A DNA stretch of 64,000 nt from Candidatus Hodarchaeota archaeon (GTDB lineage: Archaea; Asgardarchaeota; Lokiarchaeia; Sigyniarchaeales; SOKP01). The stretch spans positions 124,342-188,341 of the forward strand of contig JBHLKM010000004.1 of the NCBI GenBank assembly GCA_048886685.1, read 5' to 3'. The position numbers and the translations under genes are program-made. The number at the start of each line of letters is the position of its first letter. Position 1 is the first letter of the stretch. The notes beneath the pieces were generated by a model that was not told the origin of the DNA, did not search any database, and saw only the letters and a list, made by a program, of their open reading frames with translations. Shown piece by piece: positions 6,728 through 35,111 of this stretch.

Positions 6728-7363
6728 TTATATCCTAATAATATCCAATTTTTCTAAATTCTTAAGGGCATCATAGATTTCATTTCTTTTTTTATCTAAG
6801 TTTCTCGAAATCTTTAATGGCGAATTTTTCCCTGTACATAACAAGGCAATTTGAAATTCAATATTATTAATCACTCCCATGGTTAAGATTTTATCTAACA
6901 CGTTTTTGGCAACAAGTAATTTTGGAAATACCTCTGCTATTTTTCCTCCTATAGTAAGATTCTCAATATCCGCATTTAAAGTCTGGAACCTACTTTTTTC
7001 AGTTGTAGTTCTGAATACTTTGAGATCCGACCGATGTTTTTTCCAAAACCTATTAGCAATTTTATGAATAACTTCTTTTATTTTCTCAGTATCATCATCT
7101 GCATCTGAAATCGAACAAAAGAGAATTCTAGAGAGGGGATGATAATATATAAAAATTGTCGAATCTTCCGACTCTAAAACTCTATCCATCTCATTGACTC
7201 TTCTTCCTTTAGCCATAGATTCTTGTATAATATCAATCGTCTTATTAATTGCATTAAAAAATCCAGTTAATAAATCATCTTGAATCTTTTTTAATTCTTT
7301 AAATGTTGCCTCAAAGAGAGAGATTCCATTATCAGCATCAATTAAATATGTCTTATAGATAAT
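6728..7363 (-). CDS. Longin-like domain protein with C-terminal winged HTH; probable ATT start at 7363 (ORF track starts at 7216)
   Basis: The frame stays open upstream of 7216 and encodes (I)IYKTYLIDADNGISLFEATF...LLTGFFNAINKTID. There is no in-frame ATG/GTG/TTG before the upstream TAA, and GAGG lies 5 nt before the ATT. C-terminus: SPLKISRNLDKKRNEIYDALKNLEKLDII. Confidence 0.7.
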   Translation of the reverse strand: MIYKTYLIDADNGISLFEATFKELKKIQDDLLTGFFNAINKTIDIIQESMAKGRRVNEMDRVLESEDSTIFIYYHPLSRILFCSISDADDDTEKIKEVIHKIANRFWKKHRSDLKVFRTTTEKSRFQTLNADIENLTIGGKIAEVFPKLLVAKNVLDKILTMGVINNIEFQIALLCTGKNSPLKISRNLDKKRNEIYDALKNLEKLDIIRI

Positions 7364-8801: not shown

Positions 8802-10268
8802 TTAAATATATGTATGAATTAAATCTATAAGGTTTTTAGAAAAATCTGGTAAATTCTTCTCAATCTTTTCGATTTGGAGAGATTTTTCAATAAATAATAG
8901 CAAGTATAGATTATACTTTTCAACCTGGATTTTTTTAAATATTACTTTTTTCGATTCATCTGCTATTCCTGAAGATACTAAAAAATCTTGTTGTAAAATC
9001 TTAAATTCTTTAAACGTTTTATATAATTCTTGGAAATGAGGGGCAGAAATTTCAAATACTCTTTCAGATATTTCATCTTTAGAATAATTAGATAAAATAA
9101 TTCCATTTTCATTTAATAATAATATTGCATCTGATTGAGTTTTCTTCGCAAACTTTTTTAATTGATTTCTAAATAATTCTCGATTAGGACTAAGTTGTGA
9201 AAGCCCAAATGAATATGCTGTTATTAGGCTCCAATGATCAAAAATACTAGTTTGAAAAATTTTAATTAAAAATCTATCAGAATTCTTCTCAATTTCATCT
9301 GCAATAATCTCTAAATTTTTGAATATTTCTTTTGATCCCTTTAAATCTGGATCAAATTTATTTAAACAAACAACAATAGGAGGGAATTCCTCTAAGTCAA
9401 TTAAAGAAACTATAATTTTCCTAAAAAGGTCTAAGGCCTCTTCTATTCTCTCAACATCTTGAATATCAATAAAAAAGAAGATTAAATCCACATTATAGAG
9501 ATAAATTTTACTTTGTTCAAGAAATCTCTCTCGATATTGTTTTTGACCAGCTAGATCCCAAAGTGAGATTACAGAATTCTGCTCTTCAAAAATATTTTCT
9601 TCAGATCTTTCAACACCTCTAGTAGGTAAAGCCTTTATGATTTCTGAATATCTCTTCTTTATTCCAAACAAAAAACTTGATTTTCCTGCCTTATCCAATC
9701 CAGTTAATAGTACCTTGATTTGCCTTCTCACAGAAAATGGATCTTTTAATTCCTTAGTGAATTCAAACAATTCATTTTTTATATCATCCATTATTCTTTT
9801 ATGATCTTCAAGTTCTTTTTCTGCTTGTATCTGGCTAGCAGCCTTATCAATAATTATTCTTAAGTATTTCATATTTTCATAAAAGAAGACTCTATCATTT
9901 TCACTGATTAGTATGGTAATAGTAGCTGCTAAAGCTTGACCTCGGGCTTTTTCTTCAGGGATGAGAAAAAAGTATGTTAGACCATTTAATTTTAAGTCTG
10001 GAAACGGTAAAATACCAAAATAGTTAACACCCACGTCTGAACCTTGTGAATCTTGATAAACGGAATCACCCATAAGTAAACTGATGGTTTTCATTGCAAT
10101 TAAAAGTCCAGCTTTTTCATCTAAATCAATAGGCCAAATAACTCTAGGAATGGGCCCCTTTTCATCAAATATGCTTAGAACTATTGCTTTTATTAAATCA
10201 GATTTGTTAGCATTTTCGGTTTTTTTATTGGTTTGTTTCATTTTCGATTTAGAGTCGTTATTGGTCAA
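8802..10268 (-). CDS. uDENN/longin-like domain + Arf/Rag-like small GTPase + roadblock domain fusion
   Basis: N-terminus FDEKGPIPRVIWP and EEKARG; G1 GLDKAGKSS, G3 WDLAGQ, G4 NKFD; C-terminus AILLLNENGIILSNY. TTG start preceded by AGGGGA. Confidence 0.85.
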   Translation of the reverse strand: MTNNDSKSKMKQTNKKTENANKSDLIKAIVLSIFDEKGPIPRVIWPIDLDEKAGLLIAMKTISLLMGDSVYQDSQGSDVGVNYFGILPFPDLKLNGLTYFFLIPEEKARGQALAATITILISENDRVFFYENMKYLRIIIDKAASQIQAEKELEDHKRIMDDIKNELFEFTKELKDPFSVRRQIKVLLTGLDKAGKSSFLFGIKKRYSEIIKALPTRGVERSEENIFEEQNSVISLWDLAGQKQYRERFLEQSKIYLYNVDLIFFFIDIQDVERIEEALDLFRKIIVSLIDLEEFPPIVVCLNKFDPDLKGSKEIFKNLEIIADEIEKNSDRFLIKIFQTSIFDHWSLITAYSFGLSQLSPNRELFRNQLKKFAKKTQSDAILLLNENGIILSNYSKDEISERVFEISAPHFQELYKTFKEFKILQQDFLVSSGIADESKKVIFKKIQVEKYNLYLLLFIEKSLQIEKIEKNLPDFSKNLIDLIHTYI

Positions 10269-10432
10269 TTTATCCCCTTATCTTTGGCTATAAAGTAATA
10301 TTTTAAAAAGTACCGTATTTATTCTTTAGATTATAATATAATAAAATCAATATATTACATTAATATACTCAAAATAATAATTACTATTAAATAATTACTT
10401 TTCTCACCCAACGTTCCATATGTTTTAATCTT

Positions 10433-12232
10433 TTATGATAAAAACTTTAAACTTACAAGTTTAGATGGGAGGAATATTTTTTTTATAAAATCTACCAAAG
10501 TGAGATTACTTCTTTTTAGTTCATTTAAAGATATATACTCAATTGCTCCACTTTGGATGAAAATTTGATACTCTTCTTGTTTCTTAATCTTTTCTAATAC
10601 GTCAATTTTAGCATCTTTCCTAAAGTGAGTAGAGTTAGTATAATAAAAGATATCTCTACTAGATTGAGGTAGCGCAATTTTTGGAAAATGTTTTAAATCT
10701 AATTTCGCAAAACGGTATGGTGCTTTCTTTGAGATATTTTCACTTAAAATAAAGGATTTATCATGTATTTTAGAGAATTCTAAACATTTTTTATACATCT
10801 CACTTAAGATTTTTTTTCCCAGATTGAATGAGTTTGAATTTTCATGCAATTCAAAATCAGTTAGAAACTTAACAGCTTCATTTAATCCTATAAAACTAAT
10901 TGACATATGTTGTTCTTCTAAATTATAGAGTGATATATTATTGATTTTACCGCTACATAGCGGTAAATGTTTCGATTTTAACCTCTTTTTTATTATTTTA
11001 TATTTTTTTAATAATATCTGAGAAGATATTTTCATATTTGTATCGATTATCTCAAAGAAATTTGACTCATCTTTACTGGTATACGCAAATCGAGGAAGAT
11101 TTATACAAATTTCTTGAAGCATACCTGAATTAATAAGATTACTTGAATAAAACGACTCTGGATAATTATCATTTAAAGATTTAACATTTGAATTTATTAA
11201 AATAGGTGTTTTCATACTATCAATTTCATCACAAACATTCATAAAAGCTCCCTTATACTTATCTATCCAAAGGTTATTCACTAAAATCTCACGTATTGGG
11301 GATTTAAACGGATTTTTATTATTATCACCTTCTTTGAAGGTTAATGTCAGCGCGTTAAACAATCTTAGACACTCTTCATAATATTCTTCATAGAAATCCC
11401 TCGCTTTATTGGTGATAGGAACCTTTAAAAATGGTTCGAGAAAAGTAGGACTAGTTAACAATGAACTAGAAGAAATCGAACCACCCGTCATTACTGATAG
11501 ATGATTTAATTCGTAGATTAAGTCTTTCATTGCAAGAATTAACTCTGAATCACTCACTCCTTTAGCATAAGGTGATAAAAACATTGTTAAGTAATTATAT
11601 CCCTGGTTTCCACAAAACTCATTTTGAGTTAATGCTACCCATTTAACTAGATGACTAATTGCTTCTTTTAGAGTGCCTGCTGGTTTTAATTTACAGCAAG
11701 GGACAAAATTATTTATAGGGGGCAACCCATGTTCTAAAATTATGCGAGGATCCCACATCTGAGATAAAGGTCTTAAATCAAAATACCGTAACTTATGAAT
11801 ATGAAGATCGCCAGATAAATGAGCTGCTGATTCCTCACTCGATAAAATTCTTAAATGAGCATATTCTTCAGATATTCGATTTGCGGCCCAATTATGGATT
11901 TTTTCTGGATTAATTATTTTTTCTGGATGGTCTCCAAATCCTTTTTCAAGAATTTTTTCATAGTCCATTAACGGCATACCTATTCTCGTATATAACTTAC
12001 GTTCATTTTCAAAGTGTTGTTCAGAAAGTATAGAACAAACTATTTCTCTTATATGAGGTCCTGAGAGAAATTTTATTCCAGAACTAATAATCCTCCTAAC
12101 AACTAATTCTGTAATTTTGTTGGCATCAGCTTCGCTCATCCCAGTTTCTTTTATAATACTTTCAAGAATTCTTGAGGATTCAAATTCAGCAAAATCACCT
12201 TCGGTTCTAAAAACTTTTGGAAATAAGTCCAT
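10433..12232 (-). CDS. ATP-cone + class III ribonucleotide reductase (NrdD)-like barrel lacking the catalytic Cys loop and glycyl-radical domain
   Basis: ATP cone (FESSRILESIIKETG...LSGPHIREIV); AHLSGDLHIH; INLPRFA; SISFIGLNEAV; YYTNSTH. No MGCR loop, no C-terminal CxxC and no RxxGY. Confidence 0.8.
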   Translation of the reverse strand: MDLFPKVFRTEGDFAEFESSRILESIIKETGMSEADANKITELVVRRIISSGIKFLSGPHIREIVCSILSEQHFENERKLYTRIGMPLMDYEKILEKGFGDHPEKIINPEKIHNWAANRISEEYAHLRILSSEESAAHLSGDLHIHKLRYFDLRPLSQMWDPRIILEHGLPPINNFVPCCKLKPAGTLKEAISHLVKWVALTQNEFCGNQGYNYLTMFLSPYAKGVSDSELILAMKDLIYELNHLSVMTGGSISSSSLLTSPTFLEPFLKVPITNKARDFYEEYYEECLRLFNALTLTFKEGDNNKNPFKSPIREILVNNLWIDKYKGAFMNVCDEIDSMKTPILINSNVKSLNDNYPESFYSSNLINSGMLQEICINLPRFAYTSKDESNFFEIIDTNMKISSQILLKKYKIIKKRLKSKHLPLCSGKINNISLYNLEEQHMSISFIGLNEAVKFLTDFELHENSNSFNLGKKILSEMYKKCLEFSKIHDKSFILSENISKKAPYRFAKLDLKHFPKIALPQSSRDIFYYTNSTHFRKDAKIDVLEKIKKQEEYQIFIQSGAIEYISLNELKRSNLTLVDFIKKIFLPSKLVSLKFLS

Positions 12233-12489
12233 GGTTAGTCTTAAAGAAGTAATTTATATAATTTTAAAAAATATCTATTGAACTATTAAATTCAAGAGAT
12301 TTAAAAAATTAAATTATTAATAGGTTAAATGCGAGAATTATAGTTTATTTCATAAAAATATAAACAACTGTTTAAAAGGATAATTAAGCTTGCTATATTA
12401 TGAAATCCTTTAAAATCTCTATCAATTTATTTTTATAGAACTTCTATACTCTCTATGATTTATTTTATAAAGTTGCTAATGAGAAATAT

Positions 12490-13272
12490 ATGTCAAATTT
12501 ATACTCTGAAGCGTCTCTCCAAAATTTTTTTACTGAAATTTATTCCATATTGAAGGAAACTGATCCGAAAATAATTGAAATATGGTGTGAAATTTCAAAA
12601 ATTTCCTTTTTCAATGGATTGAGAAAAACAGAGTTATATAATTTCTTAGATAAGTTTGAATTTATATCTCTTAAAAAGGGAAATTATGTTTACTATATTG
12701 TAATTGATAAGGTTTTATTTATTATCAACTGTATCAAGTTCTTGAAGTATGATGTTGCACATCTTTCTGAAATATTGGATTATAACGGTTTTGAGTCATT
12801 AATAAAGGAAATTTTATCTAAAAATAATTTTCGGACAATTACGAATTTTAGATTTTCTGAAATTTCTAAACTATCATCAAATATTTCTCAGAAAAAATTT
12901 GAGATTGATGTTATTGGAATTTATTTAAACTATATTTTAATCATAGATGCAAAACAATGGAAGCGCAAAGATTCATATGGATCGCTTAATAAAGCAGCCA
13001 ATCTCCAATATAATCGGATTAGAGCATTGCAGCACAATGACGAAGCTTTTTCAAAGCTCATTAAAACAATTTTAGGTAAAGATCCTCAAGTGAAAAGGCA
13101 TTTACCGTTCATACTTATACCGGTTATGGTTACCCTTGAAGATAATAGCATAAAGTTAAATGAAAACCAGATACCACTCGTATCTATATATGAATTCAAT
13201 GTTTTTTTACAAGAGTTCCCAAATTATCTACATTACTTTAAATCAGTTCAAGTGAATAAAGTAGTACTATAA
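12490..13272 (+). CDS. PD-(D/E)xK nuclease-fold protein (Mrr/NERD-like)
   Basis: FESLIKEIL...FEIDVIG...IIDAKQWK. Confidence 0.7.
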   Translation: MSNLYSEASLQNFFTEIYSILKETDPKIIEIWCEISKISFFNGLRKTELYNFLDKFEFISLKKGNYVYYIVIDKVLFIINCIKFLKYDVAHLSEILDYNGFESLIKEILSKNNFRTITNFRFSEISKLSSNISQKKFEIDVIGIYLNYILIIDAKQWKRKDSYGSLNKAANLQYNRIRALQHNDEAFSKLIKTILGKDPQVKRHLPFILIPVMVTLEDNSIKLNENQIPLVSIYEFNVFLQEFPNYLHYFKSVQVNKVVL

Positions 13273-13313
13273 AAGAAAACTGAAAATTCTCACGTTAAAT
13301 TTTTAAAACAAAA

Positions 13314-14372
13314 TTATTCTTCTAAACCCAAATAGTATTTTATTTGTTTCTTTATTAGATTGATAGCAACGGAAATAATTCCACTTTTAACTTTGGGATG
13401 AGAAAATAGAATCAAAATCATATCTTTTAAACTTGGAGATTCACGATCGATAGGTGCTAAGTCTAATACCCCTTCACTTCCTTTTACACTTATAGATTTT
13501 AAAGCACCTGCGCTTAAACCATGAATAATATCCGAACCAATCATAGAAAGATTCACCCCTATCGTGCTAAATAAAGAATCTGACATCCTACTTGAAATTG
13601 CTGAAGCTAAGATTGTTCCATCTGTTTTGATAATCGCTGAAGCTTCTATTCGAGAGTCAAGCGTAATCAATTCGCGTAAAATTTCATTCATACTCGCAGG
13701 AGGGATCTTTTCTTCAGGTTTTTTTTCAATCTTAGACTCAACTACAGGTGATTCTAATTTCTTCACTGATATTTTCTTTGATAGAAAGCTTAGAACTTCA
13801 GTCATATCTTTTTCTAATCTTTTCTGTTTTGAAATAGAAACTTCAGTTTCTGGCCTCTTGGTAGGAATAGGAACTAATGTAGATTTTAGTTTTTCTTTCT
13901 CATCTTCAATAATTGATTGTTTAAGTTCTGAAAACGCATCAGAAATGGAATCTTGGGTGGTAACAGGAGGAGGTTGAAAGCCTTTTTTATCTGATATTAA
14001 TGAACTTTGAAATGGTTTTGGTGTAATTTCTTGAAGAACTTGGTTTTTATCTTGTTCAGATTTATCTTGAATTTCATTAAAAGAATCATCTTCACTAATT
14101 TCACTAGTTTCTGAGGGAATATCATCAAGATTTAATTCCATTTCTTTTGGAATTTCGTGTAATTCAATCTTTTCCTGGTCTTTTTCAACGGTTTCAATTG
14201 ATATTTCAATTTTTTCACTAGAAAACTCTTTATCAACTTTTTTCTCTGATTTCTTTTTTTTAGTTTTAACTCTAGAAGGTTTGGAAGAAATTGGCAGTAA
14301 AGCACCACATTTTCTACACGTACGACTTACTGCTTCGTTATTTGTGGTACCACAATTCTGGCAGATAATAAT
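13314..14372 (-). CDS. Zinc ribbon + low-complexity linker + roadblock/LC7 (MglB/LAMTOR-like) domain; probable ATT start at 14372 (ORF track starts at 14141)
   Basis: The open frame upstream of 14141 encodes IICQNCGTTN...TCRKCGALL with no canonical start, and GGAGG lies just upstream. C-terminus IEASAIIKTDGTILAS...LKSISVKGSEG is roadblock-like. Confidence 0.8.
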   Translation of the reverse strand: MIICQNCGTTNNEAVSRTCRKCGALLPISSKPSRVKTKKKKSEKKVDKEFSSEKIEISIETVEKDQEKIELHEIPKEMELNLDDIPSETSEISEDDSFNEIQDKSEQDKNQVLQEITPKPFQSSLISDKKGFQPPPVTTQDSISDAFSELKQSIIEDEKEKLKSTLVPIPTKRPETEVSISKQKRLEKDMTEVLSFLSKKISVKKLESPVVESKIEKKPEEKIPPASMNEILRELITLDSRIEASAIIKTDGTILASAISSRMSDSLFSTIGVNLSMIGSDIIHGLSAGALKSISVKGSEGVLDLAPIDRESPSLKDMILILFSHPKVKSGIISVAINLIKKQIKYYLGLEE

Positions 14373-14654
14373 AGTTTTATCTCTCCTCCATGAGTTTAAA
14401 TTACTAAAAAATTATTATAGGTGCTAATTTTCATAAAGTTTAGATATGAATCTTTATTTTATTTATATTAAATTAATGATTTTCTTGATTTTTAGTTTTT
14501 TGTTGTATAAATTACTAGTAAAAATTTGATTTTATTAATATTTATCATCTTAAATTAATGTTTTAATATATTCGCTGGATGTAAAGTTTGGGAGTTTAAT
14601 CTCACTAATGAAACCTACAATTTTGGAGAAATATAGTTAGATCAGTGGTTTTTA

Positions 14655-15629
14655 TTATCTATAAAGTATTTCTTTCATTATATTCGTAAACGTTTCAAAA
14701 TCCTCTTTTTGGAAAACTGGATCCTCCTTAAGTAGCAATAAATAATATGGAGTTGAATCTTTCTGTAATGAAATTTGCTTAAATATAAAATTTTTCCCAA
14801 ATCTTTGAACAATCATTCTATCCTCATATTTATTGTCCATAACGCCAGTAAATTGTATATTATCACTAAGGGTTAAAAAATAGGGCGTTGAGGCTGTCAG
14901 TAAATGCTTAGTCTCAGCATCTTTATAAAAAGAGCCAATTACAAGTGAATTATCATCAATAACTACTACACCAGCTGAATCGATTTTTTTGGCAAACTCG
15001 ATTATTGTTCTCTCAATAAGTTCTGATTTTGGATATAAGCTTAAAAGGATTTCCGACATTGCCTTAATTATGGATCCAAAATCATAAATAGATGTCTCAT
15101 AAAAGTATATTTCCTTATAATCAGTAGCACCTTTTACTTGCTCTTTTAAATCTATTGTAAGATTTTCCATTTCATTTAAAGCCCCTCTTCTTAAAGCGGG
15201 ATCATATTTGTGAAGAAAAACATAAATCGGGGGTTCAATCTCTAATTTGTTGAACTGTTCAATTACATCCTTAAAATAACTTATTGCTTCTGGTATTCTA
15301 GGTTTGTTTTGAATATCGATGACATAAATAGCAATTTCCGTACCATCGAAAAATTTTCCTGGATTCTTTAAATACGAGATTCTATAGCTAATTTGTCCAC
15401 CTAAATCCCATTCTGCAATTTCTTTTCCTAAAAAATCAAAAACTCTTCTTTGGGCACCTCTGGTTGGAGATAATACGGCTATTTTTGAAAATTCTCTTTG
15501 AAGTGAGAGAATAATACTTGTCTTTCCTGCATCGTCCAATCCCGTAAATAATAACTTTGATGGTTCCGGTTTCGGTTCCGGTTCTTCTTTTTTCAAATAC
15601 ATTATTGATTGTTTTAGATTTTTCTCCAA
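14655..15629 (-). CDS. Rag/Gtr-like small GTPase with C-terminal roadblock domain
   Basis: GLDDAGKTS, PTRG, WDLGGQ, HKYD; C-terminus GVVVIDDNSLVIGSF. Confidence 0.85.
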   Translation of the reverse strand: MEKNLKQSIMYLKKEEPEPKPEPSKLLFTGLDDAGKTSIILSLQREFSKIAVLSPTRGAQRRVFDFLGKEIAEWDLGGQISYRISYLKNPGKFFDGTEIAIYVIDIQNKPRIPEAISYFKDVIEQFNKLEIEPPIYVFLHKYDPALRRGALNEMENLTIDLKEQVKGATDYKEIYFYETSIYDFGSIIKAMSEILLSLYPKSELIERTIIEFAKKIDSAGVVVIDDNSLVIGSFYKDAETKHLLTASTPYFLTLSDNIQFTGVMDNKYEDRMIVQRFGKNFIFKQISLQKDSTPYYLLLLKEDPVFQKEDFETFTNIMKEILYR

Positions 15630-15725
15630 AGTTAAATTTCACCTTTACACATCTAGAAAGCAATTAATTAATATATATTCTTTTATAAGATAAAATATGA
15701 TCTTATCGCTTATTTAAATTTTGCT

Positions 15726-17081
15726 TTATAACTTATTTTTGATGAATAATTTCAGATCTTCATACTTATTAATTTCTACTGGATTCGAGAATTCCTTTTT
15801 ATTTTGAATAATCTCCAATGCTTTTGGTAATTCTGGTTTAACTTTTATTAATGAGATAATTTCATTAGGAAATTTAGCTGGATCAGCAGTTTCGAAAGTA
15901 ATAGATTTGATTTGACTTTGAGAAGGATTGTTATTACGGTAGATCTGAAGAGCTGCCCATCCGACGGCACCATGAGGTTCTATAATTTTCTCATATCTTC
16001 TATAAAATTGTACAATTGTTTCTCGTGTTAAATCATCACTTATGGAGTATGATGCTATATTAGCTCTAAGTTTTTCTAAATCTGGATTTCTTTGAATATT
16101 TCCATTTTCATCAATTTGTCCTCCATATAAATCAAATATACGGGCTAAATTACTAGGATTACCTACATTCATAGCAGAAGAGAGGCAATTTCTTGAGGGA
16201 ACGATTTTTGAATAAATTCCTGATTTTAGAAATTTTGGGAATTCATCATTCTCATTTACAGCAGAAATAAATTTATCAACTGGCAAGTCCATTTTAGATG
16301 CTATAAGTCCACCAGTAAGATTACCAAAATTACCTGAAGGTACTGAAAAAATCACTTTTTCATTTAGGTGTTGGATTATTCGTGAATAACTCCAAAAATA
16401 ATAAATGACTTGGGGGACAAGACGACCAATATTAATAGAATTTGCAGATGATAGGTTATAATCTTGTAAATCTTTATCTGCAAAAGCGGTTTTTATAATT
16501 TTCTGACAATCATCAAATTTCCCATTGATTCCTATTGCTATAACATTTTTTCCAAGAGTTATCATTTGTTTTCTTTGCAGTTCGCTGATTTCTTTTTTAG
16601 GATAGAGTACAATTACTTTAATTCTTGACATTTTATAGAATGCTTGCGCTACAGCGCCCCCCGTATCCCCAGAAGTTGCTGTTAATATTATTATTTCTTT
16701 TTTCTCAAGTGAAAGAAAATATTCCATGATTCTTGCTAAGATTCTTGCTCCAAAATCTTTGAAACTACAAGTAGGACCTTTACTTAGATGGCATAAATAG
16801 TCAGATTTTTCAATTGTCTCTAATCCAATTTCAAAATTCAAAGCACTTCGTATAATCTTTTTTAATGACTTTTCAGGTATTTGATCTTTTAAAATTTTTA
16901 ATAAAATCTCAAAAGCAATTTCTTGTAAACTTAAGTCTTTAAAACTAAATATTTTTCGATGATCTATTGTTGGAATCTTATTTAACATGTATAAACCCTT
17001 ATCTAAGGCTTGCCCTCTCAAAACAGCCGTTTTAAAGTCGACATCTGGAGTGTTGTAGTTTGTTGAATGGAATTTAATCAT
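15726..17081 (-). CDS. thrC: Threonine synthase (E. coli-like long type)
   Basis: GPTCSFKDFG (PLP Lys), ATSGDTG, SANSINIGRL, VPSGNFGN, EPHGAV, TADPAKF. Confidence 0.95.
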   Translation of the reverse strand: MIKFHSTNYNTPDVDFKTAVLRGQALDKGLYMLNKIPTIDHRKIFSFKDLSLQEIAFEILLKILKDQIPEKSLKKIIRSALNFEIGLETIEKSDYLCHLSKGPTCSFKDFGARILARIMEYFLSLEKKEIIILTATSGDTGGAVAQAFYKMSRIKVIVLYPKKEISELQRKQMITLGKNVIAIGINGKFDDCQKIIKTAFADKDLQDYNLSSANSINIGRLVPQVIYYFWSYSRIIQHLNEKVIFSVPSGNFGNLTGGLIASKMDLPVDKFISAVNENDEFPKFLKSGIYSKIVPSRNCLSSAMNVGNPSNLARIFDLYGGQIDENGNIQRNPDLEKLRANIASYSISDDLTRETIVQFYRRYEKIIEPHGAVGWAALQIYRNNNPSQSQIKSITFETADPAKFPNEIISLIKVKPELPKALEIIQNKKEFSNPVEINKYEDLKLFIKNKL

Positions 17082-17099
17082 AGTTGATATTGATTAATT

Positions 17100-17618
17100 T
17101 TATTTTAATAAATCATTAATTTTGTTGATTGCTTCTAATGGAGTATTTACACCATATATCATGTCATTTCTTCTATTATCTAACTTTTGATTAGCAATTT
17201 TAGAAGACCAACCCTGAACACTCGATAAAGCTACTAAAGGTTTATCATATATCCATGCGAAACAAATTTCAGATAAAGTTCCTGCTTTTCCACCAATAGC
17301 TAAACATATGTCACCTGTAAGTACGACAACAATATTTCTTGCTTGTGAAAACGGACATGGAATTACAAGATCTACATATTTGTTAGCTAAGCTTTTTTCT
17401 GTATGTGGAATAATTCCGACTGTAAAGCCTCCTTCTTCTTTGGCACCTTTACATACTGCTTCCATTACACCAGAAAGACCACCACAAGCCACAGCGTACT
17501 GGTTTTTTGCGATTAATCTCCCGATTTCTATGGTTTTATCCTCTATTTCTTTATCAATTTCACTTGCTCCTATAACAGAAATTACAGCTTTAAAGTTATT
17601 TTTATAATTTAAACTCAT
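17100..17618 (-). CDS. LOG/SLOG-family protein (TIGR00725-like)
   Basis: ISVIGA, CGGLSGVMEAVCKGA, ARN, GGKAGTLSE. Confidence 0.85.
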   Translation of the reverse strand: MSLNYKNNFKAVISVIGASEIDKEIEDKTIEIGRLIAKNQYAVACGGLSGVMEAVCKGAKEEGGFTVGIIPHTEKSLANKYVDLVIPCPFSQARNIVVVLTGDICLAIGGKAGTLSEICFAWIYDKPLVALSSVQGWSSKIANQKLDNRRNDMIYGVNTPLEAINKINDLLK

Positions 17619-17653
17619 AATATTGAATCTATATTTATTAAATTAAAAATATA

Positions 17654-18667
17654 TTACGTAATATATCCTCTTTTTATTGAAATATCTATTAAATCATTTA
17701 GTATAGCCGATGCGGCTTCAAAACCCCCAGCACCTCTCCCCATTAAGATTATTGGCCCTGCATATTTAGTTTCTAGTTCGACCACATTTAAATTTCCGCT
17801 AATATTAAGAGGAGAATACTTATCAATCAAACGTGGTTCTACAGATAATTCATTATTTTCTGCTATAGCCAGATGTTTAATGACAAAACCATCTGGTTTA
17901 ACTAATTCAATCGCATGAGGGGTTACCTTCGAAATACCTTCTACTTTAACATCCGTTATACTTTTTGACCATCCTAACAATTCGTTCGCTAATATAACTA
18001 ACTTTCCAGCAGCATCATAACCTTCAATATCTAAAGTAGGATCTGATTCAGCATATCCCAACTCCTGTGCTTCTTTTAAAGCTAAAGGAAAATTAACTCC
18101 TTCCGCAGTCATTCTGCTTAATATGAAATTGGAAGTGCCGTTTAATATTGCTTTTATGCTAAGAATTTCATTTCCAATTAAATCTTCTTTGATCTTTAAT
18201 GAAGGAACACAACTCGCAACAGTTGCTTCAAATTTTACGTAGCAATTATTCTGTTCAGCTAAATTCTTAATCTTTTTATATTCGAGATAAAATGGTCCTT
18301 TATTAGAAGAAATAACGTCTATATGGTTATTAAGAGCTTCAATAACATGAGACAAACCGGGTTCTCCTGTTTCCGGATTTGTAGGTGTGGTTTCTATACA
18401 AATATTTACATCTAATTTAGAGATTAAATCGATTGCTTTTAGATCACTTTTCCAATATGAAAGATTTCTAAAATCGTTGTCCGCATCCAAAACTTCTTTT
18501 AAATCAATTCCTTTTTTATTGATAAGTGCTCCATCGATTTCGAAAATTGAATTCACAATAACTTTTAAATTAAATTTCTGCTTTAAAAAATCTTTTTTTT
18601 GATATAATAATTGAATTAAACTAGTTCCAACCACCCCTTTCCCGATTAAACAGATTTTAACAGTCAT
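17654..18667 (-). CDS. hom: Homoserine dehydrogenase
   Basis: GKGVVG, SNKGP, FEATV, ILNGTSNFIL, AQELGYAESDPTLDIEGYDAAGK, GRGAG. Confidence 0.95.
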   Translation of the reverse strand: MTVKICLIGKGVVGTSLIQLLYQKKDFLKQKFNLKVIVNSIFEIDGALINKKGIDLKEVLDADNDFRNLSYWKSDLKAIDLISKLDVNICIETTPTNPETGEPGLSHVIEALNNHIDVISSNKGPFYLEYKKIKNLAEQNNCYVKFEATVASCVPSLKIKEDLIGNEILSIKAILNGTSNFILSRMTAEGVNFPLALKEAQELGYAESDPTLDIEGYDAAGKLVILANELLGWSKSITDVKVEGISKVTPHAIELVKPDGFVIKHLAIAENNELSVEPRLIDKYSPLNISGNLNVVELETKYAGPIILMGRGAGGFEAASAILNDLIDISIKRGYIT

Positions 18668-18766
18668 TGTTTTGATTAGAACAGATTTTAATTATTGTTT
18701 GGTTTTACAGAGAATTTAGTCGGTTTATTATCATTTGATTTATGATACATATTAAACTCATTCAAT

Positions 18767-19258
18767 TTAACTTGTAATTAAAAATAAATTCTTTTCTTCA
18801 CATATTTTTCTAAGTTCATTATTAAGTTCCTTTTTATTCATATATTCAGGGAATTCAATTCTTAACTTAACATTACTTACTTCTTCTAATTCTGTAAATT
18901 TAGCTTGTAATTCTAACACATTAATGTTTTTAGATGCTAATCTTTTAATTGTATCCATCACATCTGTATCAAATACATGTCCGGTTAAAATTATTGTGAT
19001 CAGTTTCTTCTCAATCCCATAATTTATGTTCTCTATTTGAATATTTTTTTCCTTTAACTCTTTTTTTATATTTTTTATGCTAACTTCTTGAATTTCCTTA
19101 CTCAATTCAAAAGTAACGTTTACAGGAATCATGTTATTTATTTTTCTATCATGGAAATGAAGGATACCATAAATATTTCCCCCATTATTAGAGATCGGTT
19201 TGATTAATTCAATTAAACTTCCAGGCGTGTCAGGTAATTTAACTTCTAAATTTATCAT
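18767..19258 (-). CDS. Tandem ACT-domain protein (archaeal allosteric regulator of homoserine dehydrogenase type)
   Basis: LPDTPGSL...ISNNGGNIYGILH; ILTGHVFDTD; lies directly upstream of hom. Confidence 0.85.
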   Translation of the reverse strand: MINLEVKLPDTPGSLIELIKPISNNGGNIYGILHFHDRKINNMIPVNVTFELSKEIQEVSIKNIKKELKEKNIQIENINYGIEKKLITIILTGHVFDTDVMDTIKRLASKNINVLELQAKFTELEEVSNVKLRIEFPEYMNKKELNNELRKICEEKNLFLITS

Positions 19259-19368
19259 AATTATTTTTCTATTTTCTGTAATTTTCTCTTGATATTCCTT
19301 GATTGGATCTTAAGAATTTAGGATTATTACGTTATTAGCAATTCTATTACTTATATTAACTAAAAATT

Positions 19369-20334
19369 TTAAAATCTAATTACATCAATAGACTCTTCTT
19401 TTCCATTATTTATCCTCAGAAGATTTGGATCTTTAATAATATTTCCTATAATATTAGCATTTAACCCATATTCTTGAAATGTTTCTATAATTTCTTCGCA
19501 GTTTATTTCAGGGGCAGTCAATAGAAATGAGGTAGTTAAATACATTTGAATATAGGTTTCTAAATTATATCCATTATCCTGTAATTTTGGGGGAATTTTA
19601 ATTTTTGATATATTCACATCTGCTCCTACATTTGAATAATTTATCATTTGAAATAGTGTTCCAAAAATTCCACCATTAGATATGTCTTTTGATGCATTGG
19701 CTAGATGTTTTTGCGCAATCATATTCATAGCTTTTCTCTTTCTTAAAACTTCTTCGGAACTTTTAAAAGTGGTAGTATCATAATATAGGTTGCTTGCTTT
19801 ACCCTTTTTTCCATCGAAATCAACTGCTAATATAATATTATCTCCTACTTGTGCATTTCCTGCAGAAATGTAATCTTCCTTTTTAATTTCACCAATCATT
19901 GTAGAACTTAACTCATAACATTTTCCATGGACGTTAGTATGTCCTCTAATAATCGGAACATTAAATTTCTGGGAACCCGCACATATTCCTTCAAGCAATT
20001 CTTTACAGATATCTGGTTCTTTCACTGAAATAATTATGCTTGCTGCTAATGGGACTCCCCCACATGCATAAATATCATCTACACTAACCAGAATTGAGCT
20101 AAAACCAGCACCAAATGGGAAATTTTCGATAAAAGTAGTTTTTATTCTATCTGTAGTAACCAGTATATATTTATCATCATCTTTTATAGTGGCAGCGTCT
20201 TCACCTATATCTGTGAATATATTTGCACTTTTAAACGAATTTTTGTCAATAAATTGAACTATAGGACTAATTTGTCGCTTTTCTAGAATGTATTGATTAT
20301 TTTTAATGCTATTAGCAATCTTTTTAAGTGTCAT
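19369..20334 (-). CDS. PurM/AIR-synthase-superfamily ATP-binding protein (ThiL/HypE/methanogenesis marker 2-like)
   Basis: GEDAA, VSVDDIYACGG, RGHT, AQVGD, KDISNGG. Confidence 0.8.
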   Translation of the reverse strand: MTLKKIANSIKNNQYILEKRQISPIVQFIDKNSFKSANIFTDIGEDAATIKDDDKYILVTTDRIKTTFIENFPFGAGFSSILVSVDDIYACGGVPLAASIIISVKEPDICKELLEGICAGSQKFNVPIIRGHTNVHGKCYELSSTMIGEIKKEDYISAGNAQVGDNIILAVDFDGKKGKASNLYYDTTTFKSSEEVLRKRKAMNMIAQKHLANASKDISNGGIFGTLFQMINYSNVGADVNISKIKIPPKLQDNGYNLETYIQMYLTTSFLLTAPEINCEEIIETFQEYGLNANIIGNIIKDPNLLRINNGKEESIDVIRF

Positions 20335-20352
20335 CTATGAATTTAATATGAA

Positions 20353-20640
20353 GTTATTAATAAATAACTGAGTAAAATTACTCGGTTTACTTATTTATAC
20401 TTAATATTGTTATTAATAAATAACTGAGTAAAAATACCCAGTTTACTTAATTATAGTTATATAAAGTTATTAATAAATAACTGAGTAAAATTACCCAGTT
20501 TACTTATTTATACTTAATATAGTTATTAATAAATAACTGAGTAAAATTACCCAGTTTACTTATTTATACTTAATATTGTTATTAATAAATAACTGAGTAA
20601 AATTACCCAGTTTACTTATTTATACTTAATATTGTTATTA
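20353..20640. repeat. Tandem array of five 56-57 bp units, each with a palindromic core
   Basis: Units start at 20353, 20409, 20466, 20522 and 20578, with a partial unit at 20634. Consensus: GTTATTAATAAATAACTGAGTAAAATTACCCAGTTTACTTATTTATACTTAATATT. Confidence 0.97.
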
Positions 20641-20727
20641 TAAATTAAATACGTTAAATAACATTATTTACTTAATTTTAAGTTATTTTGTTTAAGTTTA
20701 GTTTAAATCATCAATAAAAACTAAAAT

Positions 20728-22923
20728 CTAAGCAATTAAGGGGACACTTTTATCTATGAAGATTTTGGTTATCATAAGCTCAAGAGAAGGAATATCTTTT
20801 ACTTGAATTTCCTTATTTAACCGGTAAAAATCCCTAAAAGTCTGCCAGGCATCTTTATCTTTCTGTAATTCGTCAATGAAATATCTAATCCTCTGTTGTG
20901 CCGAATATGATTGCCCCTTGTATACATAACACATCAGAAAGGGTGAAACAGAGTTCATTAGGAGAGTATGTTCACCAAAAGTAGCTCGATCAAGCCCCTC
21001 AGAGAATTTTTCATTTATAAATGAATTAATTGCTGTAAAGAAACTCCCAAGTAGATCATTCTCCAAAGACCATTGTTCAGTAAATGATTGAGAGAATATT
21101 GGTATTCCCCCTTCTGAGACAACTAAAAGTAGAACAGGATCTTCATCTGAAAGTTGAGGAGCTTCCACTACTCGCCTTCTGATCATATTCTCCAATTGTT
21201 CATTTAATCGAGCAAATTCTATACGATCTTTTATTGATGAACTTGATTCTTTTAAACTCTCCCATACATTTAATTGTTTTAGAAGATCATCATGTTCATT
21301 TGAAATTTTTATAGCTAGCAATTTAAGACCGAATTTTTCGGCGATTTGCTGAGCTTGAGTTAAAAATCGCTGAGCCTCCTTCATATCAAAGGTTAATAGA
21401 GATAATTTAGCTTTTAACAAGTAAGTTTCGCATTGAACCGAGAAAGAACCCGTATTTTCGGCAATATTTAATAATTGAGCAATAAGAGGTTTGATTTCCT
21501 CCAGTACCTCTAAGTCGTTAGTCATTCGTAACTCGGTTAAGAGCAATTCACATAAGTTAGTTAGTGTTTTTATTGTTAGCTCGTAATCTTCATCCTTATC
21601 TTCAAGAATTTGCTTCAATACTTTCTCGGATTCAGCTCTATTCTGAGCTCGAGTGCTCGTTTTCAGCAATAAAGCTTTATTTAAGAGATACCTCAAATTA
21701 TAATCTTTTTCTTTAAGCTGATTGTTTAGTTGTTCATAACGGTGAAGAAATTGTTGCGATCGTTCAAGGTCTCCCTTTTCAATTAATGTTTGAATTAAAT
21801 AATCGTAAATACTAGCCAGACGTCTTAAATTTCCCGAATCTTCATATAGCGCCAAGCATTGTTCTATACACTCTAAAGCACGATCTAATTCTCCTCTCTG
21901 TCTATAGGCTTCCCCCATATTATTAAGAACACCAGCAATCCACCTTTTAATGTTAAGGTCACTGAAAATTGTCAACGCTTGCTCATAAAGCTTAATACCA
22001 CGATCCAAATCACCTTTAAATATATATACTGCTGCCATACTATAAAAAGAAAATCCGATAAGCCATTTAATGCCACTTTCCTCGGCGATAATCATTCCTC
22101 GTTCCAGGGTTTTTAAAGCACGATCTAATTCTCCTCTCCTTATATAGGCTAAGCCCCTATTGTTAAGATGAATTCCGATCATAAATTCATTGTTAATACT
22201 ATTGAAAACTGCTAAACCCCGATCCGAAAACATTAAACCAAGCTCCAAATCACCTTTACCATAATACTTAACAGACATACTACTCAAAGAATATCCGATA
22301 ACCCATTTATTACCACTTTCCTCGGCAAGTGGCCTAGCTTGCTTGGAAAATTTTAAAGCTTGATCATAATCGGATTTCAAAAAAGTATATACCCAAGAAA
22401 TTGCTATAAGGGTAATAGTCATATCCTTTTTAGCGTTAAGTTCTTCTCGTAACGCTAAACTATACCCAAGATGCTTTAATGCTTGATCAGCTTCATCTAT
22501 TAATATGTAATACCAACCCTTAAGATAAGCTAAATAAGCCTTTCTTTTCTTATAATCTTCTGATATCTCTTGCGGTGAAACCTTTAGCAGTCCTTCTACT
22601 TGTTTAATAATATTGTTAAGTTTATCCGATTGTTTATGCCATACTAAAGCATCGGCCATTCTAAGTAAGATATCGACTGACAGGAGGTTTTTTTCTAATC
22701 CTAAACTCTCTTTATATGTTTGTTCAGCAAGTGTAATAACATCTTTATGTAAACCTCTCCAAAATAAAAGATCACATTTGAGGAGATGAGATAAAACAAT
22801 ACTATGAAGAGAGTGTCCTCCCTTTTCCTCGAAGTTTTTAAGTAATTGATTCGCTTCATCTAATTTACATTCTTCAAGGAGTTGTTTTATAAGAATTAAT
22901 TCCTTAGGTTCTAAATAAGACAT
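20728..22923 (-). CDS. Tetratricopeptide-repeat protein with C-terminal longin-like domain
   Basis: About 40-aa TPR/MalT-like repeats (LNNMGEAYRQRGELDRAL); C-terminus LLVVSEGGIPIFSQSF...LLGSFFTAINSF. Confidence 0.9.
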   Translation of the reverse strand: MSYLEPKELILIKQLLEECKLDEANQLLKNFEEKGGHSLHSIVLSHLLKCDLLFWRGLHKDVITLAEQTYKESLGLEKNLLSVDILLRMADALVWHKQSDKLNNIIKQVEGLLKVSPQEISEDYKKRKAYLAYLKGWYYILIDEADQALKHLGYSLALREELNAKKDMTITLIAISWVYTFLKSDYDQALKFSKQARPLAEESGNKWVIGYSLSSMSVKYYGKGDLELGLMFSDRGLAVFNSINNEFMIGIHLNNRGLAYIRRGELDRALKTLERGMIIAEESGIKWLIGFSFYSMAAVYIFKGDLDRGIKLYEQALTIFSDLNIKRWIAGVLNNMGEAYRQRGELDRALECIEQCLALYEDSGNLRRLASIYDYLIQTLIEKGDLERSQQFLHRYEQLNNQLKEKDYNLRYLLNKALLLKTSTRAQNRAESEKVLKQILEDKDEDYELTIKTLTNLCELLLTELRMTNDLEVLEEIKPLIAQLLNIAENTGSFSVQCETYLLKAKLSLLTFDMKEAQRFLTQAQQIAEKFGLKLLAIKISNEHDDLLKQLNVWESLKESSSSIKDRIEFARLNEQLENMIRRRVVEAPQLSDEDPVLLLVVSEGGIPIFSQSFTEQWSLENDLLGSFFTAINSFINEKFSEGLDRATFGEHTLLMNSVSPFLMCYVYKGQSYSAQQRIRYFIDELQKDKDAWQTFRDFYRLNKEIQVKDIPSLELMITKIFIDKSVPLIA

Positions 22924-23139
22924 ATTTTTTCCTAGAAATTATTGAATCAGATAGCTTGGTATTATCACTTTTTAATTACAAGTTACATATTAAGAATATT
23001 ACACTTTAAAATATAGGTACATGTGTAGAAATACAAATTCTACTTAAATATAGGATACCATCACCTTTAGTTTAAGTATTCATCTAAAAAAGTAACTAAA
23101 AAAATTAAAATTACGTATTTATATATTAATAACTTTATA

Positions 23140-23185
23140 AAGTATAATTAAGTAAAGTGGGTAATTTTACACACTTATTAATAAA
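23140..23185. repeat. Single diverged copy of the 56-bp repeat, inverted relative to the array
   Basis: TAATTAAGTAAAGTGGGTAATTTTACACACTTATTAATA aligns with the reverse complement of the array unit. Confidence 0.8.
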
Positions 23186-23239
23186 TAATAATAACAATAA
23201 AAAAAAAAATATATTTTTTAACAAATACTTATTTTAAAT

Positions 23240-23473
23240 TTACTCTCCGCGTCCAACGAACTTTTCAAATATAAATGCGACAATACATATAATACCTGAA
23301 ATGAGAATCCCAATAGGTGCGAAACCAATAGTAGTTTCACCCATCGCAATATTTTCTGAATCAAATACAATATATAAGATTGGAAATATAATCAGTGCAA
23401 TTCCTACTAGTGCATAGACTAACCAATCCCATTTAAAATCCATACCTTTCATATTATGGATTCCATAAAACAA
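23240..23473 (-). CDS. Small two-TM membrane protein (true start may be ATG 23443)
   Basis: Two hydrophobic helices; AAAGGT precedes the ATG at 23443. Confidence 0.65.
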   Translation of the reverse strand: MFYGIHNMKGMDFKWDWLVYALVGIALIIFPILYIVFDSENIAMGETTIGFAPIGILISGIICIVAFIFEKFVGRGE

Positions 23474-23658
23474 TAAAACACTATATAAAACTATCGCATT
23501 CTCTCAATTGTGTTACAATCCAACTTTCTTTTTTATCTATTAATTGCTTTTATTTCAATTGTATTACAAAAAATTATTTTTATAAAAATAACAAAGTAAA
23601 AACTTTTTCTTATTGTGTACACATTAAAAAAATATTTATTGATAAAGGTTATGTAAAA

Positions 23659-23696
23659 TTAAATAAAGTGAGTAAAATTACTCAGTTATTAATAAT
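23659..23696. repeat. Second diverged, inverted copy of the palindromic repeat core
   Basis: TAAATAAAGTGAGTAAAATTACTCAGTTATTAATA, about 60 bp upstream of the 23759 start. Confidence 0.8.
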
Positions 23697-23758
23697 TAAT
23701 TTTGCTTAATTACTTTAAGAAATTTAAAATTTAAAACAAAAAAAAATTACTTCAAGCA

Positions 23759-25264
23759 ATGGAGGAATTATTCAAAACTTCAATTATCAAGGGATTAATT
23801 TTTTCATCTTACGGAGATTTAGGTCCACAACCAATTTATGTATGGCCTAAATATTATACCGATAAAGAGATAGAAATTGTTAAAGAAGAGAGGGAAAAAC
23901 AAAACCTTCTCACTCTAACAACTAGAGATGTTACACAAATCTCAATTAAAAACCTTAGTTTGTTTATTAGTGATAGAGCATTTACTCCAGATATAGATAT
24001 TCAAGGTTTAATGTATTTTGCCATCTTACCTTATCCTGATTTCAATGCAACATCTTTAACATATTTTCATTATATCAACACTGGTCCTTCTAACTCCCAG
24101 ATTCCTACAGCTTTTTCAATCTTAGTTGATGAAATTAGTAGAAGTTTTTTATATAATAATATAAACAGAATTAAACCTATTGTTATTGAATTTTTTAAAA
24201 CTTTTGATAATAAATTAACTGATGGGTTTCCACCTCAATTGGAGATAGAATCTGCATTTCATGATTTATTCAAAAAAATTATAGAGATCGAAAGAAATCC
24301 ATCAACTCCAATTACTACTCATCGAAAGATGAAGATTTTATTTGCTGGGCTTGACGATAGTGGTAAAACAAGTTTTTTACTTTCTGTAGATCGAAAATAT
24401 AGTAAGTTGATTGGATTAAAACCTACTACTGGTGCTAGTATTAAATCAATAGAAGCTTTAGGAGCAACAATCTTTTTATGGGATTTAGGTGGACAACTAG
24501 AATTTAGAAAAAAATACATTAGTAAAGCAGAAATATATTTATATGAAGCAGATTTATTATTTTATTTTATTGATATCAGGAATAAAATTAGATTTGAAGA
24601 AAGTATTGAATATCTTCTTGATTTAAAAAGAGTCTTAAAACAATTTAATCAAAATACTCCGATTATCTATATTCTATCAAAAGGGGATTCTGATATTATA
24701 AAAACTGGGGAAATTATAGAAAATATTGAAACTATTAGAAATAGTTTAACTGAAATTTCACCAGAAGAACCACCTGAAATATATGTGACTAGTATTTTTC
24801 AGATATTTACAATATTAAGAGCCTTCTCTTCAGGAATCTCAAAATTAAGTCCTAACAGAAATCTTATCAATCATAATCTTAGGAATTTCTCTTTAAAAAC
24901 TAACGCTTATTTAACTCTATTGTTAAGTGTAGATGGGTTGGTTTTAGCAGATTTCTATTCCCCAAAAGCGAAAAAATTGACAAGGTTACCTGAATCCGAG
25001 GAATTAGTTAATGTTTTTGAGATAACTGCCCCACAATTTGCTATGTTATTCAAAATTTTCTCTAGATTCAAGGCACTACAGGAAGAAGAAGCAATCTTTA
25101 AAGTAGCAGATTCAGTGATACTTTTCAGAAGGGTTCAAGCAGCAGAAAACGATATGTTCATGTTATTTCTGATTGATAACGAAAAAAGAAAAGAAAAAAT
25201 AAATGCTAAGCTAGTTGATTTCCTTGGTCAAACAAAAGATCTTTTATTAAGATATATTGCTTAA
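23759..25264 (+). CDS. uDENN/longin-like + Arf/Rag-like GTPase + roadblock fusion (paralogue of 8802..10268)
   Basis: SYGDLGPQPIYVWP; ILPYPD; GLDDSGKTS, WDLGGQ, atypical G4 SKGD; shared linker LSPNR; LLLSVDGLVLADF. Confidence 0.85.
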   Translation: MEELFKTSIIKGLIFSSYGDLGPQPIYVWPKYYTDKEIEIVKEEREKQNLLTLTTRDVTQISIKNLSLFISDRAFTPDIDIQGLMYFAILPYPDFNATSLTYFHYINTGPSNSQIPTAFSILVDEISRSFLYNNINRIKPIVIEFFKTFDNKLTDGFPPQLEIESAFHDLFKKIIEIERNPSTPITTHRKMKILFAGLDDSGKTSFLLSVDRKYSKLIGLKPTTGASIKSIEALGATIFLWDLGGQLEFRKKYISKAEIYLYEADLLFYFIDIRNKIRFEESIEYLLDLKRVLKQFNQNTPIIYILSKGDSDIIKTGEIIENIETIRNSLTEISPEEPPEIYVTSIFQIFTILRAFSSGISKLSPNRNLINHNLRNFSLKTNAYLTLLLSVDGLVLADFYSPKAKKLTRLPESEELVNVFEITAPQFAMLFKIFSRFKALQEEEAIFKVADSVILFRRVQAAENDMFMLFLIDNEKRKEKINAKLVDFLGQTKDLLLRYIA

Positions 25265-34070: not shown

Positions 34071-35111
34071 ATGGAAAGGCAAATAATCAAAGCTCTTATA
34101 TATAGTAATTTAGATGATGAAATCGGCCCTAATCCTAAAGCATATTCTCCCCAAGATTTTTCTCAACTAAATCTATTGCATATTAGTGTTAAAACTTTTG
34201 CAATTCTTACAGGTGAGAGAGGAATGATACCTGAGTCTTTAGTTATTTTACCATTTCCATCTCTGCAATTAAAAGCTTTGATTAAATATATTCAATGGAA
34301 AGATCCTGATATACGAGGAGGTATTGGTCAATCTAATATAGCTTTATTATTTCAAGAGATGGATGATGTAATTTTCTATAAGTACTTGAAAGAATTTTCA
34401 AATACTTTTGACGATATTGCTCAAAATATTGCTTTCTTAGAAAGATCCAAGGCAAGTAAAGAGGAATTTGGTGATGAATTAAAAAATCTTGAAGCTTCAA
34501 TAACAGAGCTTATAGAAAAATTAAAAAATCAAGAACTAACAGAATATAGGATTGAGGCATTAGCAGAGGAAATAGATAGAAGTTTGATTGATTATCAATT
34601 CAAGATAATAGTTGTAGGAGATCCAACTGTTGGAAAAACAAGCTTAATCTTAAGGTATACTAATAATGCGTTCAGAAGATCATATGTATCAACCCTAGGT
34701 GTTCATGTTTCAAATAAGATATTTAAAACTGAAGACTCCACTATTATCCAGCTTGTTTTATGGGATGTAGGGGGTCAAGAAAGGTTTAAACTTATGAGAA
34801 AACAGTTTTATCAAGGATCTGATGCTATTCTTTTGGTTTTTGATTTAACTAACCCTGAAACTTTTAGCAATATCCCCGTCTGGTTTTTAGATATAAAGAA
34901 ACAGATTAATAAGCTGGATGAAGATTTTACAGGTTATATCATTGGAAACAAAAAAGATTTAAAGGAGGATATAAAAATAACTGCTGATAATGCTCAAAAG
35001 CTAGCCGATCAAATGAATTTAAAATATCTTGAAACTTCTGCTTTATCTGGGGAAAATGTAGATTATGCCTTCACAACACTCGCAAAATTCCTTTACGAGT
35101 CGCGAAAGTGA
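34071..35111 (+). CDS. uDENN/longin-like domain + Rab-like small GTPase
   Basis: LDDEIGPNP; DPDIRGG; GDPTVGKTS, YVSTLGV, WDVGGQERF, GNKKD, ETSAL. Confidence 0.9.
   Translation: MERQIIKALIYSNLDDEIGPNPKAYSPQDFSQLNLLHISVKTFAILTGERGMIPESLVILPFPSLQLKALIKYIQWKDPDIRGGIGQSNIALLFQEMDDVIFYKYLKEFSNTFDDIAQNIAFLERSKASKEEFGDELKNLEASITELIEKLKNQELTEYRIEALAEEIDRSLIDYQFKIIVVGDPTVGKTSLILRYTNNAFRRSYVSTLGVHVSNKIFKTEDSTIIQLVLWDVGGQERFKLMRKQFYQGSDAILLVFDLTNPETFSNIPVWFLDIKKQINKLDEDFTGYIIGNKKDLKEDIKITADNAQKLADQMNLKYLETSALSGENVDYAFTTLAKFLYESRK

Follow-up and report, generated by a model that had tools for sequence, protein, structure and literature searches.

We analysed a 64,000-nucleotide stretch of DNA (the window), located on contig C4 of a 4.4 Mb, 47-contig assembly of a Candidatus Hodarchaeota archaeon, where the genes at positions 8802, 14655 and 23759, named here A, B and C, encode three Rag-type GTPases. 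Two of them, A and C, also carry an N-terminal longin domain, and across the order of Lokiarchaeia to which this genome belongs the longin of A-type proteins possesses an arginine in a loop where the longin of C-type proteins has none. We propose, with a probability of about 0.35, that A and C could constitute a two-chain machine, in which a dimer of Rag-like GTPases would bring along its own GTPase-activating protein (GAP) in the form of one catalytic and one non-catalytic longin.

A preliminary description of this stretch, made from the sequence alone, had assigned to all three proteins a GTPase followed by a C-terminal roadblock, and open reading frames, Pfam, an AlphaFold2 (AF2) model and homology agree with it. 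Gtr1_RagA (PF04670) is the top Pfam family for A, B and C (E 2e-24, 6e-26 and 2e-19, respectively) and, in profile searches of the PDB, RagA/Gtr1 ranked above Arf for A and C. Protein A (8802..10268, minus strand, 488 aa) was recognized by Pfam, AF2 model and fold search as a GP/Arg-type, folliculin-like longin (aa 25-172, 9753..10196) joined to a Rag-type G domain (9198..9725; motifs GLDKAGKS, PTRG, WDLAGQ, NKFD and TSIF) and a roadblock (8805..9194, from model topology and fold match). In the model (predicted local distance difference test, pLDDT, 74; predicted template modelling score, pTM, 0.58) the longin topology occupies aa 26-172, the G domain 182-357 and the roadblock topology 363-487, and the top structural matches across about 300 columns are LokiRagO (8YL2), RagA and Gtr1. 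Protein C (23759..25264, plus strand, 501 aa) is a paralogue of A, with 31% identity over the full length and an HHalign probability of 100 over 480 columns, end to end. It is composed of a longin (23780..24292), a Rag-type G domain (24323..24841; GLDDSGKT, PTTG, WDLGGQ, SKGD and TSIF) and a roadblock (24845..25261), the last identified by alignment to A and to the C-terminal domain of RagC. Protein B (14655..15629, minus strand, 324 aa) has no longin, and its roadblock was assigned by homology to 8YL2. The genome contains 16 strong Gtr1_RagA matches, 14 of them in frames of at least 300 aa, and A and C are the only proteins found in it that combine a GP longin, a Rag domain and a roadblock.

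The motifs that had been reported for the three proteins are all present. The longin of A shows FDEKGP (10152-10169) and KARGQ, whose arginine, R109 (codon 9942..9944), is the candidate arginine finger, and its fourth G motif (G4) is NKFD. The longin of C retains the GP motif as YGDLGP (23810-23827), has YINTGPSNSQIP, without arginine, at the position of the Arg loop (24071-24106), and is followed by a G domain with the G4 SKGD. In B the G4 is HKYD.

The longin of A, folded alone (pLDDT 86), found as its first match in a fold search the Lokiarchaeal longin 8YQG (Z 19.0, root-mean-square deviation 1.8 over 139 residues), to which it also aligns with an E of 7e-19. The next matches were Lst4 (Z 13.1) and chains of the FLCN (12.6), C9orf72-SMCR8 (12.5) and GATOR1 (11.4) complexes; these matches span Z values from 13.1 to 10.6, with TRAPP and adaptin (AP) longins lower, at 9.8 or less. 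Pfam Folliculin matches 34 out of 34 A-type longins tested (best E 4e-6), and R109 lies within this match, in the loop between strands 4 and 5. We take this loop to resemble that of FLCN, an assumption of ours that stands alongside what has been published on Asgard longins. Eukaryotic GAP longins, like one class of Asgard longins, are distinguished by a GP motif and an arginine finger, and in the eukaryotic complexes an Arg-bearing longin is paired with an Arg-less one (PMC12290439); the same work leaves open whether the client GTPase of the Asgard GP/Arg longins is Rag or ArfR.

The difference between A and C is not a peculiarity of this genome. The ARG motif was found in 69/69 A-type proteins and in 0/45 C-type proteins, the GP motif being present in nearly all of both, so that the asymmetry between a catalytic and a non-catalytic longin, first noticed for 8802 and 23759, is conserved across the order. 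An independent library clustered at 50% returned the same two classes (8 Arg+ and 16 Arg- full fusions). All 45 C-type proteins have a G4 of the form [S/T]KxD, and the histidine of HKxD occurs in B and in many A orthologues. The longin and the roadblock of C diverged more than those of A in 40/41 and 41/41 genome pairs, respectively, whereas its G domain is as well conserved as that of A (0.67 vs 0.67). The putative dimer helices rank with the best conserved parts of both proteins, with values for A and C of 0.82 and 0.74 in longin helix 1 and of 0.77 and 0.71 in roadblock helix 2.

The possibility that C is a dead GTPase was considered and rejected, because its G domain, unlike its longin and roadblock, diverged no faster than that of A, and because G motifs and switch-II glutamine are intact in all orthologues of family f1; in family f2 this glutamine is lost in 5 of 9 orthologues. 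The term "aberrant", previously applied to SKGD, is therefore too strong: the lysine and the aspartate of G4 are retained, all other G motifs and the switch-II glutamine of C are intact, and another paralogue of the same genome has SKSD. Judged by its sequence, C appears to be a functional nucleotide-binding protein whose longin is passive.

Both A and C are present in at least 33 of the 38 genomes of the order that are at least 90% complete and at most 5% contaminated, genomes that are related and not independent; the co-occurrence of the two paralogues, whose failure would have spoken against a pair, thus holds. In the genomes examined, the triple fusion of longin, Rag and roadblock was not found outside this order, where Rag-roadblock genes and GP/Arg longins are present in other architectures. 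In family f4 all four genomes (63-88% complete) have a single Arg+ fusion and no C-type fusion was found in them, but a stand-alone Arg-less longin, divergent from the fusion, lies 1.1-1.9 kb away (L102:12350-12859, L103:9476-9985, L105:11366-11905 and L104:1-524, one of the four being truncated at the end of its contig). In three genomes of family f6, one or more Rag-roadblock genes are followed by a stand-alone Arg-less GP longin (L219:10082-12508, L220:8204-9704 and L213:5912-9068), which in two of them lies about 60 bp 3'. The stand-alone Arg-less longins fall within the A/C longin family (support 99 against the outgroup). This recurrence of an Arg+ with an Arg- longin in differing gene forms is, at the level of sequences, the strongest case that genome comparison makes for a longin pair. 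That C might be split into two genes in f4 was also considered and discarded, as those Rag-roadblock genes of f4 that score highest with the profile of C cluster with a different paralogue (C1:356562; 100/97). It should be noted that the A orthologue of one genome (G021, L110:5605-6579) has an open frame of just 324 aa, for which a frameshift and an assembly error were not distinguished.

We modelled A (20-488) together with C (4-501) by ESMFold2 with custom alignments. The pair scored 0.49 (runs 0.49, 0.53 and 0.49) against 0.00 for the best control, the controls not including A-A or C-C homodimers; the runs shared at least 93% of contacts with partner pLDDT of at least 76, and gave no interface. 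The score mark is reached by 58/80 solved complexes and 2/110 mismatches, but a value of 0.49 is weak, because the range above the mark up to 0.60 holds just 7 solved complexes and both mismatches. For the proposed heterodimer of 8802 and 23759, then, contact in a weak model and co-occurrence are in favor, and its standing as an ancestral Rag pair, discussed below, is not. We consider the chances that A and C form a heterodimer to be evenly balanced, and a heterodimer with the predicted GAP activity to be a more tentative proposition. In such a complex A and C would bind through longin-longin and roadblock-roadblock contacts, and the longin pair would serve as a GAP platform to which A would contribute R109 and C the passive half. 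The arginine would be presented to a Rag-type G domain, which could be its own, that of the partner, or that of a longin-less paralogue such as B, and GTP hydrolysis would be sped up by the longin pair. The outcome would be a self-contained GTP/GDP switch, parallel to the eukaryotic system of Rag and longin GAPs and not its ancestor, whose input signal is probably not threonine.

Several observations weigh against this two-chain machine. The A+C score may stem from resemblance to Rag and longin dimers of known structure. In profile searches R109 was not aligned residue by residue to the finger of FLCN, NPRL2 or SMCR8, as only 8YQG and a non-significant match to the GP region of SMCR8 (E 0.9) were obtained, so that its role as a finger draws on the position in the loop, the invariance and PMC12290439. 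In the longin trees the Arg-less clade has a support of 90/74 in one tree and 68 with long branches removed, and the alternative clade of A and C longins is not rejected (approximately unbiased test, p-AU 0.64). A and C are not co-operonic, they are about 80 kb apart in one genome (G031) where A was relocated, and their linkage is shared with L13e-like, transglutaminase, NERD, LOG, AIRS-like and archaeosortase neighbours. Moreover, the nearest relatives of known structure are homo-oligomers or monomers (8YL2 is a homotetramer; LokiRagM, 8ZLA and 9M28, a monomer), and the crystal of 8YQG, itself an Arg-less GP longin, contains a dimer of a single sequence; from 8YL2, 8ZLA and 8YQG it follows that Asgard Rags and longins need not be heterodimers. 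Finally, the GP/Arg longin is fused also to Rab-like GTPases, here at 34071 and 35272, and, throughout the phylum, to many other proteins, which makes it a general GTPase-associated module and not a Rag-specific one.

These observations feed two other explanations. A and C could be independent homo-oligomeric switches, A being a homodimer with a built-in GAP and C a slower switch or scaffold that lost its arginine after duplication and does not need A, with their linkage left over from a synteny that spans the whole block. Besides the homo-oligomeric crystals of 8YL2 and 8YQG, this agrees with the longin-containing GTPases of MK-D1 being modelled as homodimers, according to the supplement of Tran et al. 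2024 (PMC10933270), and with the single Arg+ fusion of f4, which is devoid of a C-type roadblock partner. We nevertheless regard it as rather unlikely, since in f1, f2 and f4 the Arg+ fusion comes with an Arg-less longin, which takes two different gene forms, A and C are almost always retained together and the A+C model gives some, albeit weak, support to a complex. The longin of A could otherwise be a general GTPase-regulating module, working in trans with other longins, on B/LokiRagO or on Rab-like proteins, or else a guanine nucleotide exchange factor (GEF) or scaffold, and A and C may swap partners among several of the roughly 14 Rag-like paralogues. The number of long Gtr1_RagA-type frames and the fusions to Rab-like GTPases are in line with this idea, and most longin/roadblock platforms are GEFs (PMC10933270). 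It appears improbable to us, however, given that no GP-longin-Rag-roadblock protein besides A and C was found in the genome, and that an invariant arginine with a GP motif is typical of GAP-type longins (PMC12290439).

The preliminary description had seen in these genes possible proto-Rag heterodimers. If this were meant in the ancestral sense, that is, a pair ancestral to RagA/B-RagC/D and to FLCN/GATOR1 that relays amino-acid (threonine) status, one RagA/Gtr1-type and one RagC/Gtr2-type subunit should be recognizable; we found that both A and C are RagA-like. The profile of A scores 95 bits with RagA/Gtr1 vs 52.5 with Gtr2, and that of C 79 bits vs 43 with Gtr2 and 42 with RagC. Some C proteins of family f2 have DIPGQ as switch II, which presumably resembles the switch-II motif of RagC, but the idea of a RagC-like C was rejected by these profile scores. 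In trees of Lokiarchaeial Rag domains, which include no eukaryotic sequences, the Rag domains of the A and C proteins group together in a single branch (98 in one tree, 99/94 in another), with the exception of the long-branch A of G140, and the single f4 fusion is weakly placed as their sister (92/56). Because A and C are sister Rag branches, their sequences indicate a duplication within this order, parallel to the eukaryotic one, and not the ancestor of the RagA/RagC pair, which leaves the ancestral reading unsupported and A/C outside the eukaryotic Rag heterodimer family. In favor of that reading one may count, beyond DIPGQ, the old adjacency of threonine genes and the suggestion by Liu et al. 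(10.1101/2020.10.19.343400) that NPRL2-like longins were tied to amino-acid regulation early on; with the fusion not found outside the order, and with the threonine genes behaving as described below, we hold it to be very improbable. No PI3/PI4-kinase (TOR; PF00454) domain was matched in the genome, the control genomes for this search being all prokaryotic.

Three Rag genes within 16.5 kb exceed random placement (about 0.02 in a rough Poisson estimate), but the block to which A, B and C belong is syntenic and inherited. In 33 loci from two families A and C are transcribed divergently and lie about 5-21 kb apart, 13.5 kb in this genome, and this linkage is block synteny, not an operon. A and C do bracket thrC, a LOG-family gene, hom and an ACT-domain gene (15726..19258, minus strand, named from translations), as had been pointed out, although the threonine genes are separated from C by, among others, a TPR gene and 836 non-coding bases. 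An amino-acid link derived from this position is however unsupported, because the threonine genes were lost repeatedly while A, B and C stayed. In a count biased to short loci (up to 20 kb examined per locus), 6/33 loci have thrC, hom and ACT between A and C, and 27/33 lack them there; hom was not found in three genomes that are 99-100% complete and keep A and C (G010, G058 and G067), and it is at another location in G022 and G037. The view that these genes are a recent insertion was rejected, since their presence in the A-C block of several genera points to an old adjacency followed by repeated loss. Therefore thrC, hom and ACT, although located in the block, do not belong to the A/B/C system and were lost independently of it.

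Protein B behaves differently. The gene at its position in G037 matches 8YL2, a homotetrameric RagA-like GTPase named LokiRagO in the title of the entry and solved with GTP, along its whole length; B is 46% identical to this protein at the same locus, and falls with LokiRagO in one branch (100/99) together with two further paralogues of its own genome. By sequence B is a separate, homo-oligomeric Rag of the LokiRagO type, and the part in heterodimers previously suggested for 14655 is unsupported, its orthologue having crystallised as a homotetramer. The roadblock gene 3' of B (listed frame 13314-14141) extends 5' past the listed ATG, to a zinc-ribbon N-terminus (CQNC...CRKC), and very probably begins near 14372 with what appears to be a non-standard Ile codon, thus encoding a zinc-ribbon, low-complexity and roadblock protein (13314..14372, minus strand). 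It adjoins B in most f1 loci, is missing beside B in several f2 loci, and its product is a candidate partner of B.

Other genes of the window deserve mention. The AIR-synthase-like gene (19369-20334, minus strand) is head-to-head with C even where hom and thrC have been lost, which argues against a function in threonine synthesis alone. Between it and C lie the TPR gene (20728-22923, minus strand), with a weak C-terminal longin match, and the 836-base AT-rich gap (22924-23758), both replaced by about 100 bases in relatives; a promoter scan of the gap, using a bacterial model, gave nothing above shuffles. A conserved winged-helix (TrmB-like) protein (6728-7216, minus strand) is encoded two genes 3' of A in f1 and f2, and its start may lie upstream, as most relatives have 211-235 aa. 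The ATP-cone/NrdD-like gene (10433-12232, minus strand) flips orientation among relatives and in G007 and G008 has been shortened to about 140 aa. Farther along, all on the plus strand, two tandem genes (34071-35111 and 35272-36303) encode fusions of a GP/Arg longin with a Rab-like GTPase, with the arginine in both (DIRGG and SRRGG). They precede a response-regulator receiver whose C-terminal domain has GP and RGG motifs resembling an Arg-type longin, judged from the translation (39192-40373), and a single-domain Rag/Arf-like GTPase with G4 HKMD and without roadblock (40416-40970).

Concerning systems already known, Rag families and NPRL2-like longins have been reported in Asgards (10.1101/2020.10.19.343400), and a layout of longin, GTPase and roadblock (L-G-R) was described in Prometheoarchaeum MK-D1 from AF2 models (Tran et al. 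2024, PMC10933270). In the accessible part of the latter work the GTPase stands between longin and roadblock, as in A and C, and a heterodimer is predicted for a Rag pair that is operonic, which A and C are not; the Arg+/Arg- asymmetry is not noted in that part. LokiRagO (8YL2) and LokiRagM (8ZLA/9M28) differ from A and C, which form a separate branch, in having no longin; orthologues of A and C (39% and 34% identity) are nevertheless in the same block of G037, the genome encoding the 8YL2 protein. Eukaryotic Rag/Gtr proteins share a homologous G domain and roadblock tail (E 3e-26 to RagA, TM about 0.74 on RagA), but A and C have an added N-terminal longin, show no RagA/RagC split and carry NKFD and SKGD where the G4 is HKxD in eukaryotes. 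With FLCN-FNIP (Lst7-Lst4), NPRL2-NPRL3 and SMCR8-C9orf72 the two proteins have in common the longin class, the GP motif and the Arg loop, which joins strands 4 and 5 and occurs in only one partner, and in SMCR8-C9orf72 both partners have the GP motif as in A and C; the difference is that A and C lack DENN or winged-helix modules, their longins being fused directly to G domain and roadblock. The longin of A belongs to the same domain family as the Asgard GP/Arg longins of PMC12290439 and the roadblock-longin 8YQG, but here it is joined to a Rag-type GTPase, where in that paper the client was left open. We infer that A/C works like a module of Rag and longin GAP. The L-G-R architecture (PMC10933270) and the GP/Arg longin (PMC12290439) are already published; in the literature searched we found no publication on a fused longin-Rag pair with Arg+ and Arg- members, and new here is also a family, f4, with a single Arg+ fusion and an adjacent stand-alone Arg-less longin.

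PMC12290439 asks whether the folliculin-type longins of Asgards are GAPs, and for which GTPases. A longin fused to a Rag-type GTPase, with an Arg-less sister as a built-in control and with orthologues of both in G037, where LokiRagO is encoded, makes a short in vitro test possible. The pair appears limited to one order, which is not the closest to eukaryotes, and is uninformative on the RagA/RagC split or on amino-acid sensing; what it bears on is the origin of the Rag-GAP chemistry of mTORC1. If A and C are indeed a two-chain machine, it would mean that archaea already used longins with an arginine finger as GAPs for Rag-type GTPases. The asymmetric longin pair, which is stand-alone in f4 and f6 and fused in f1 and f2, would then predate the fusion.

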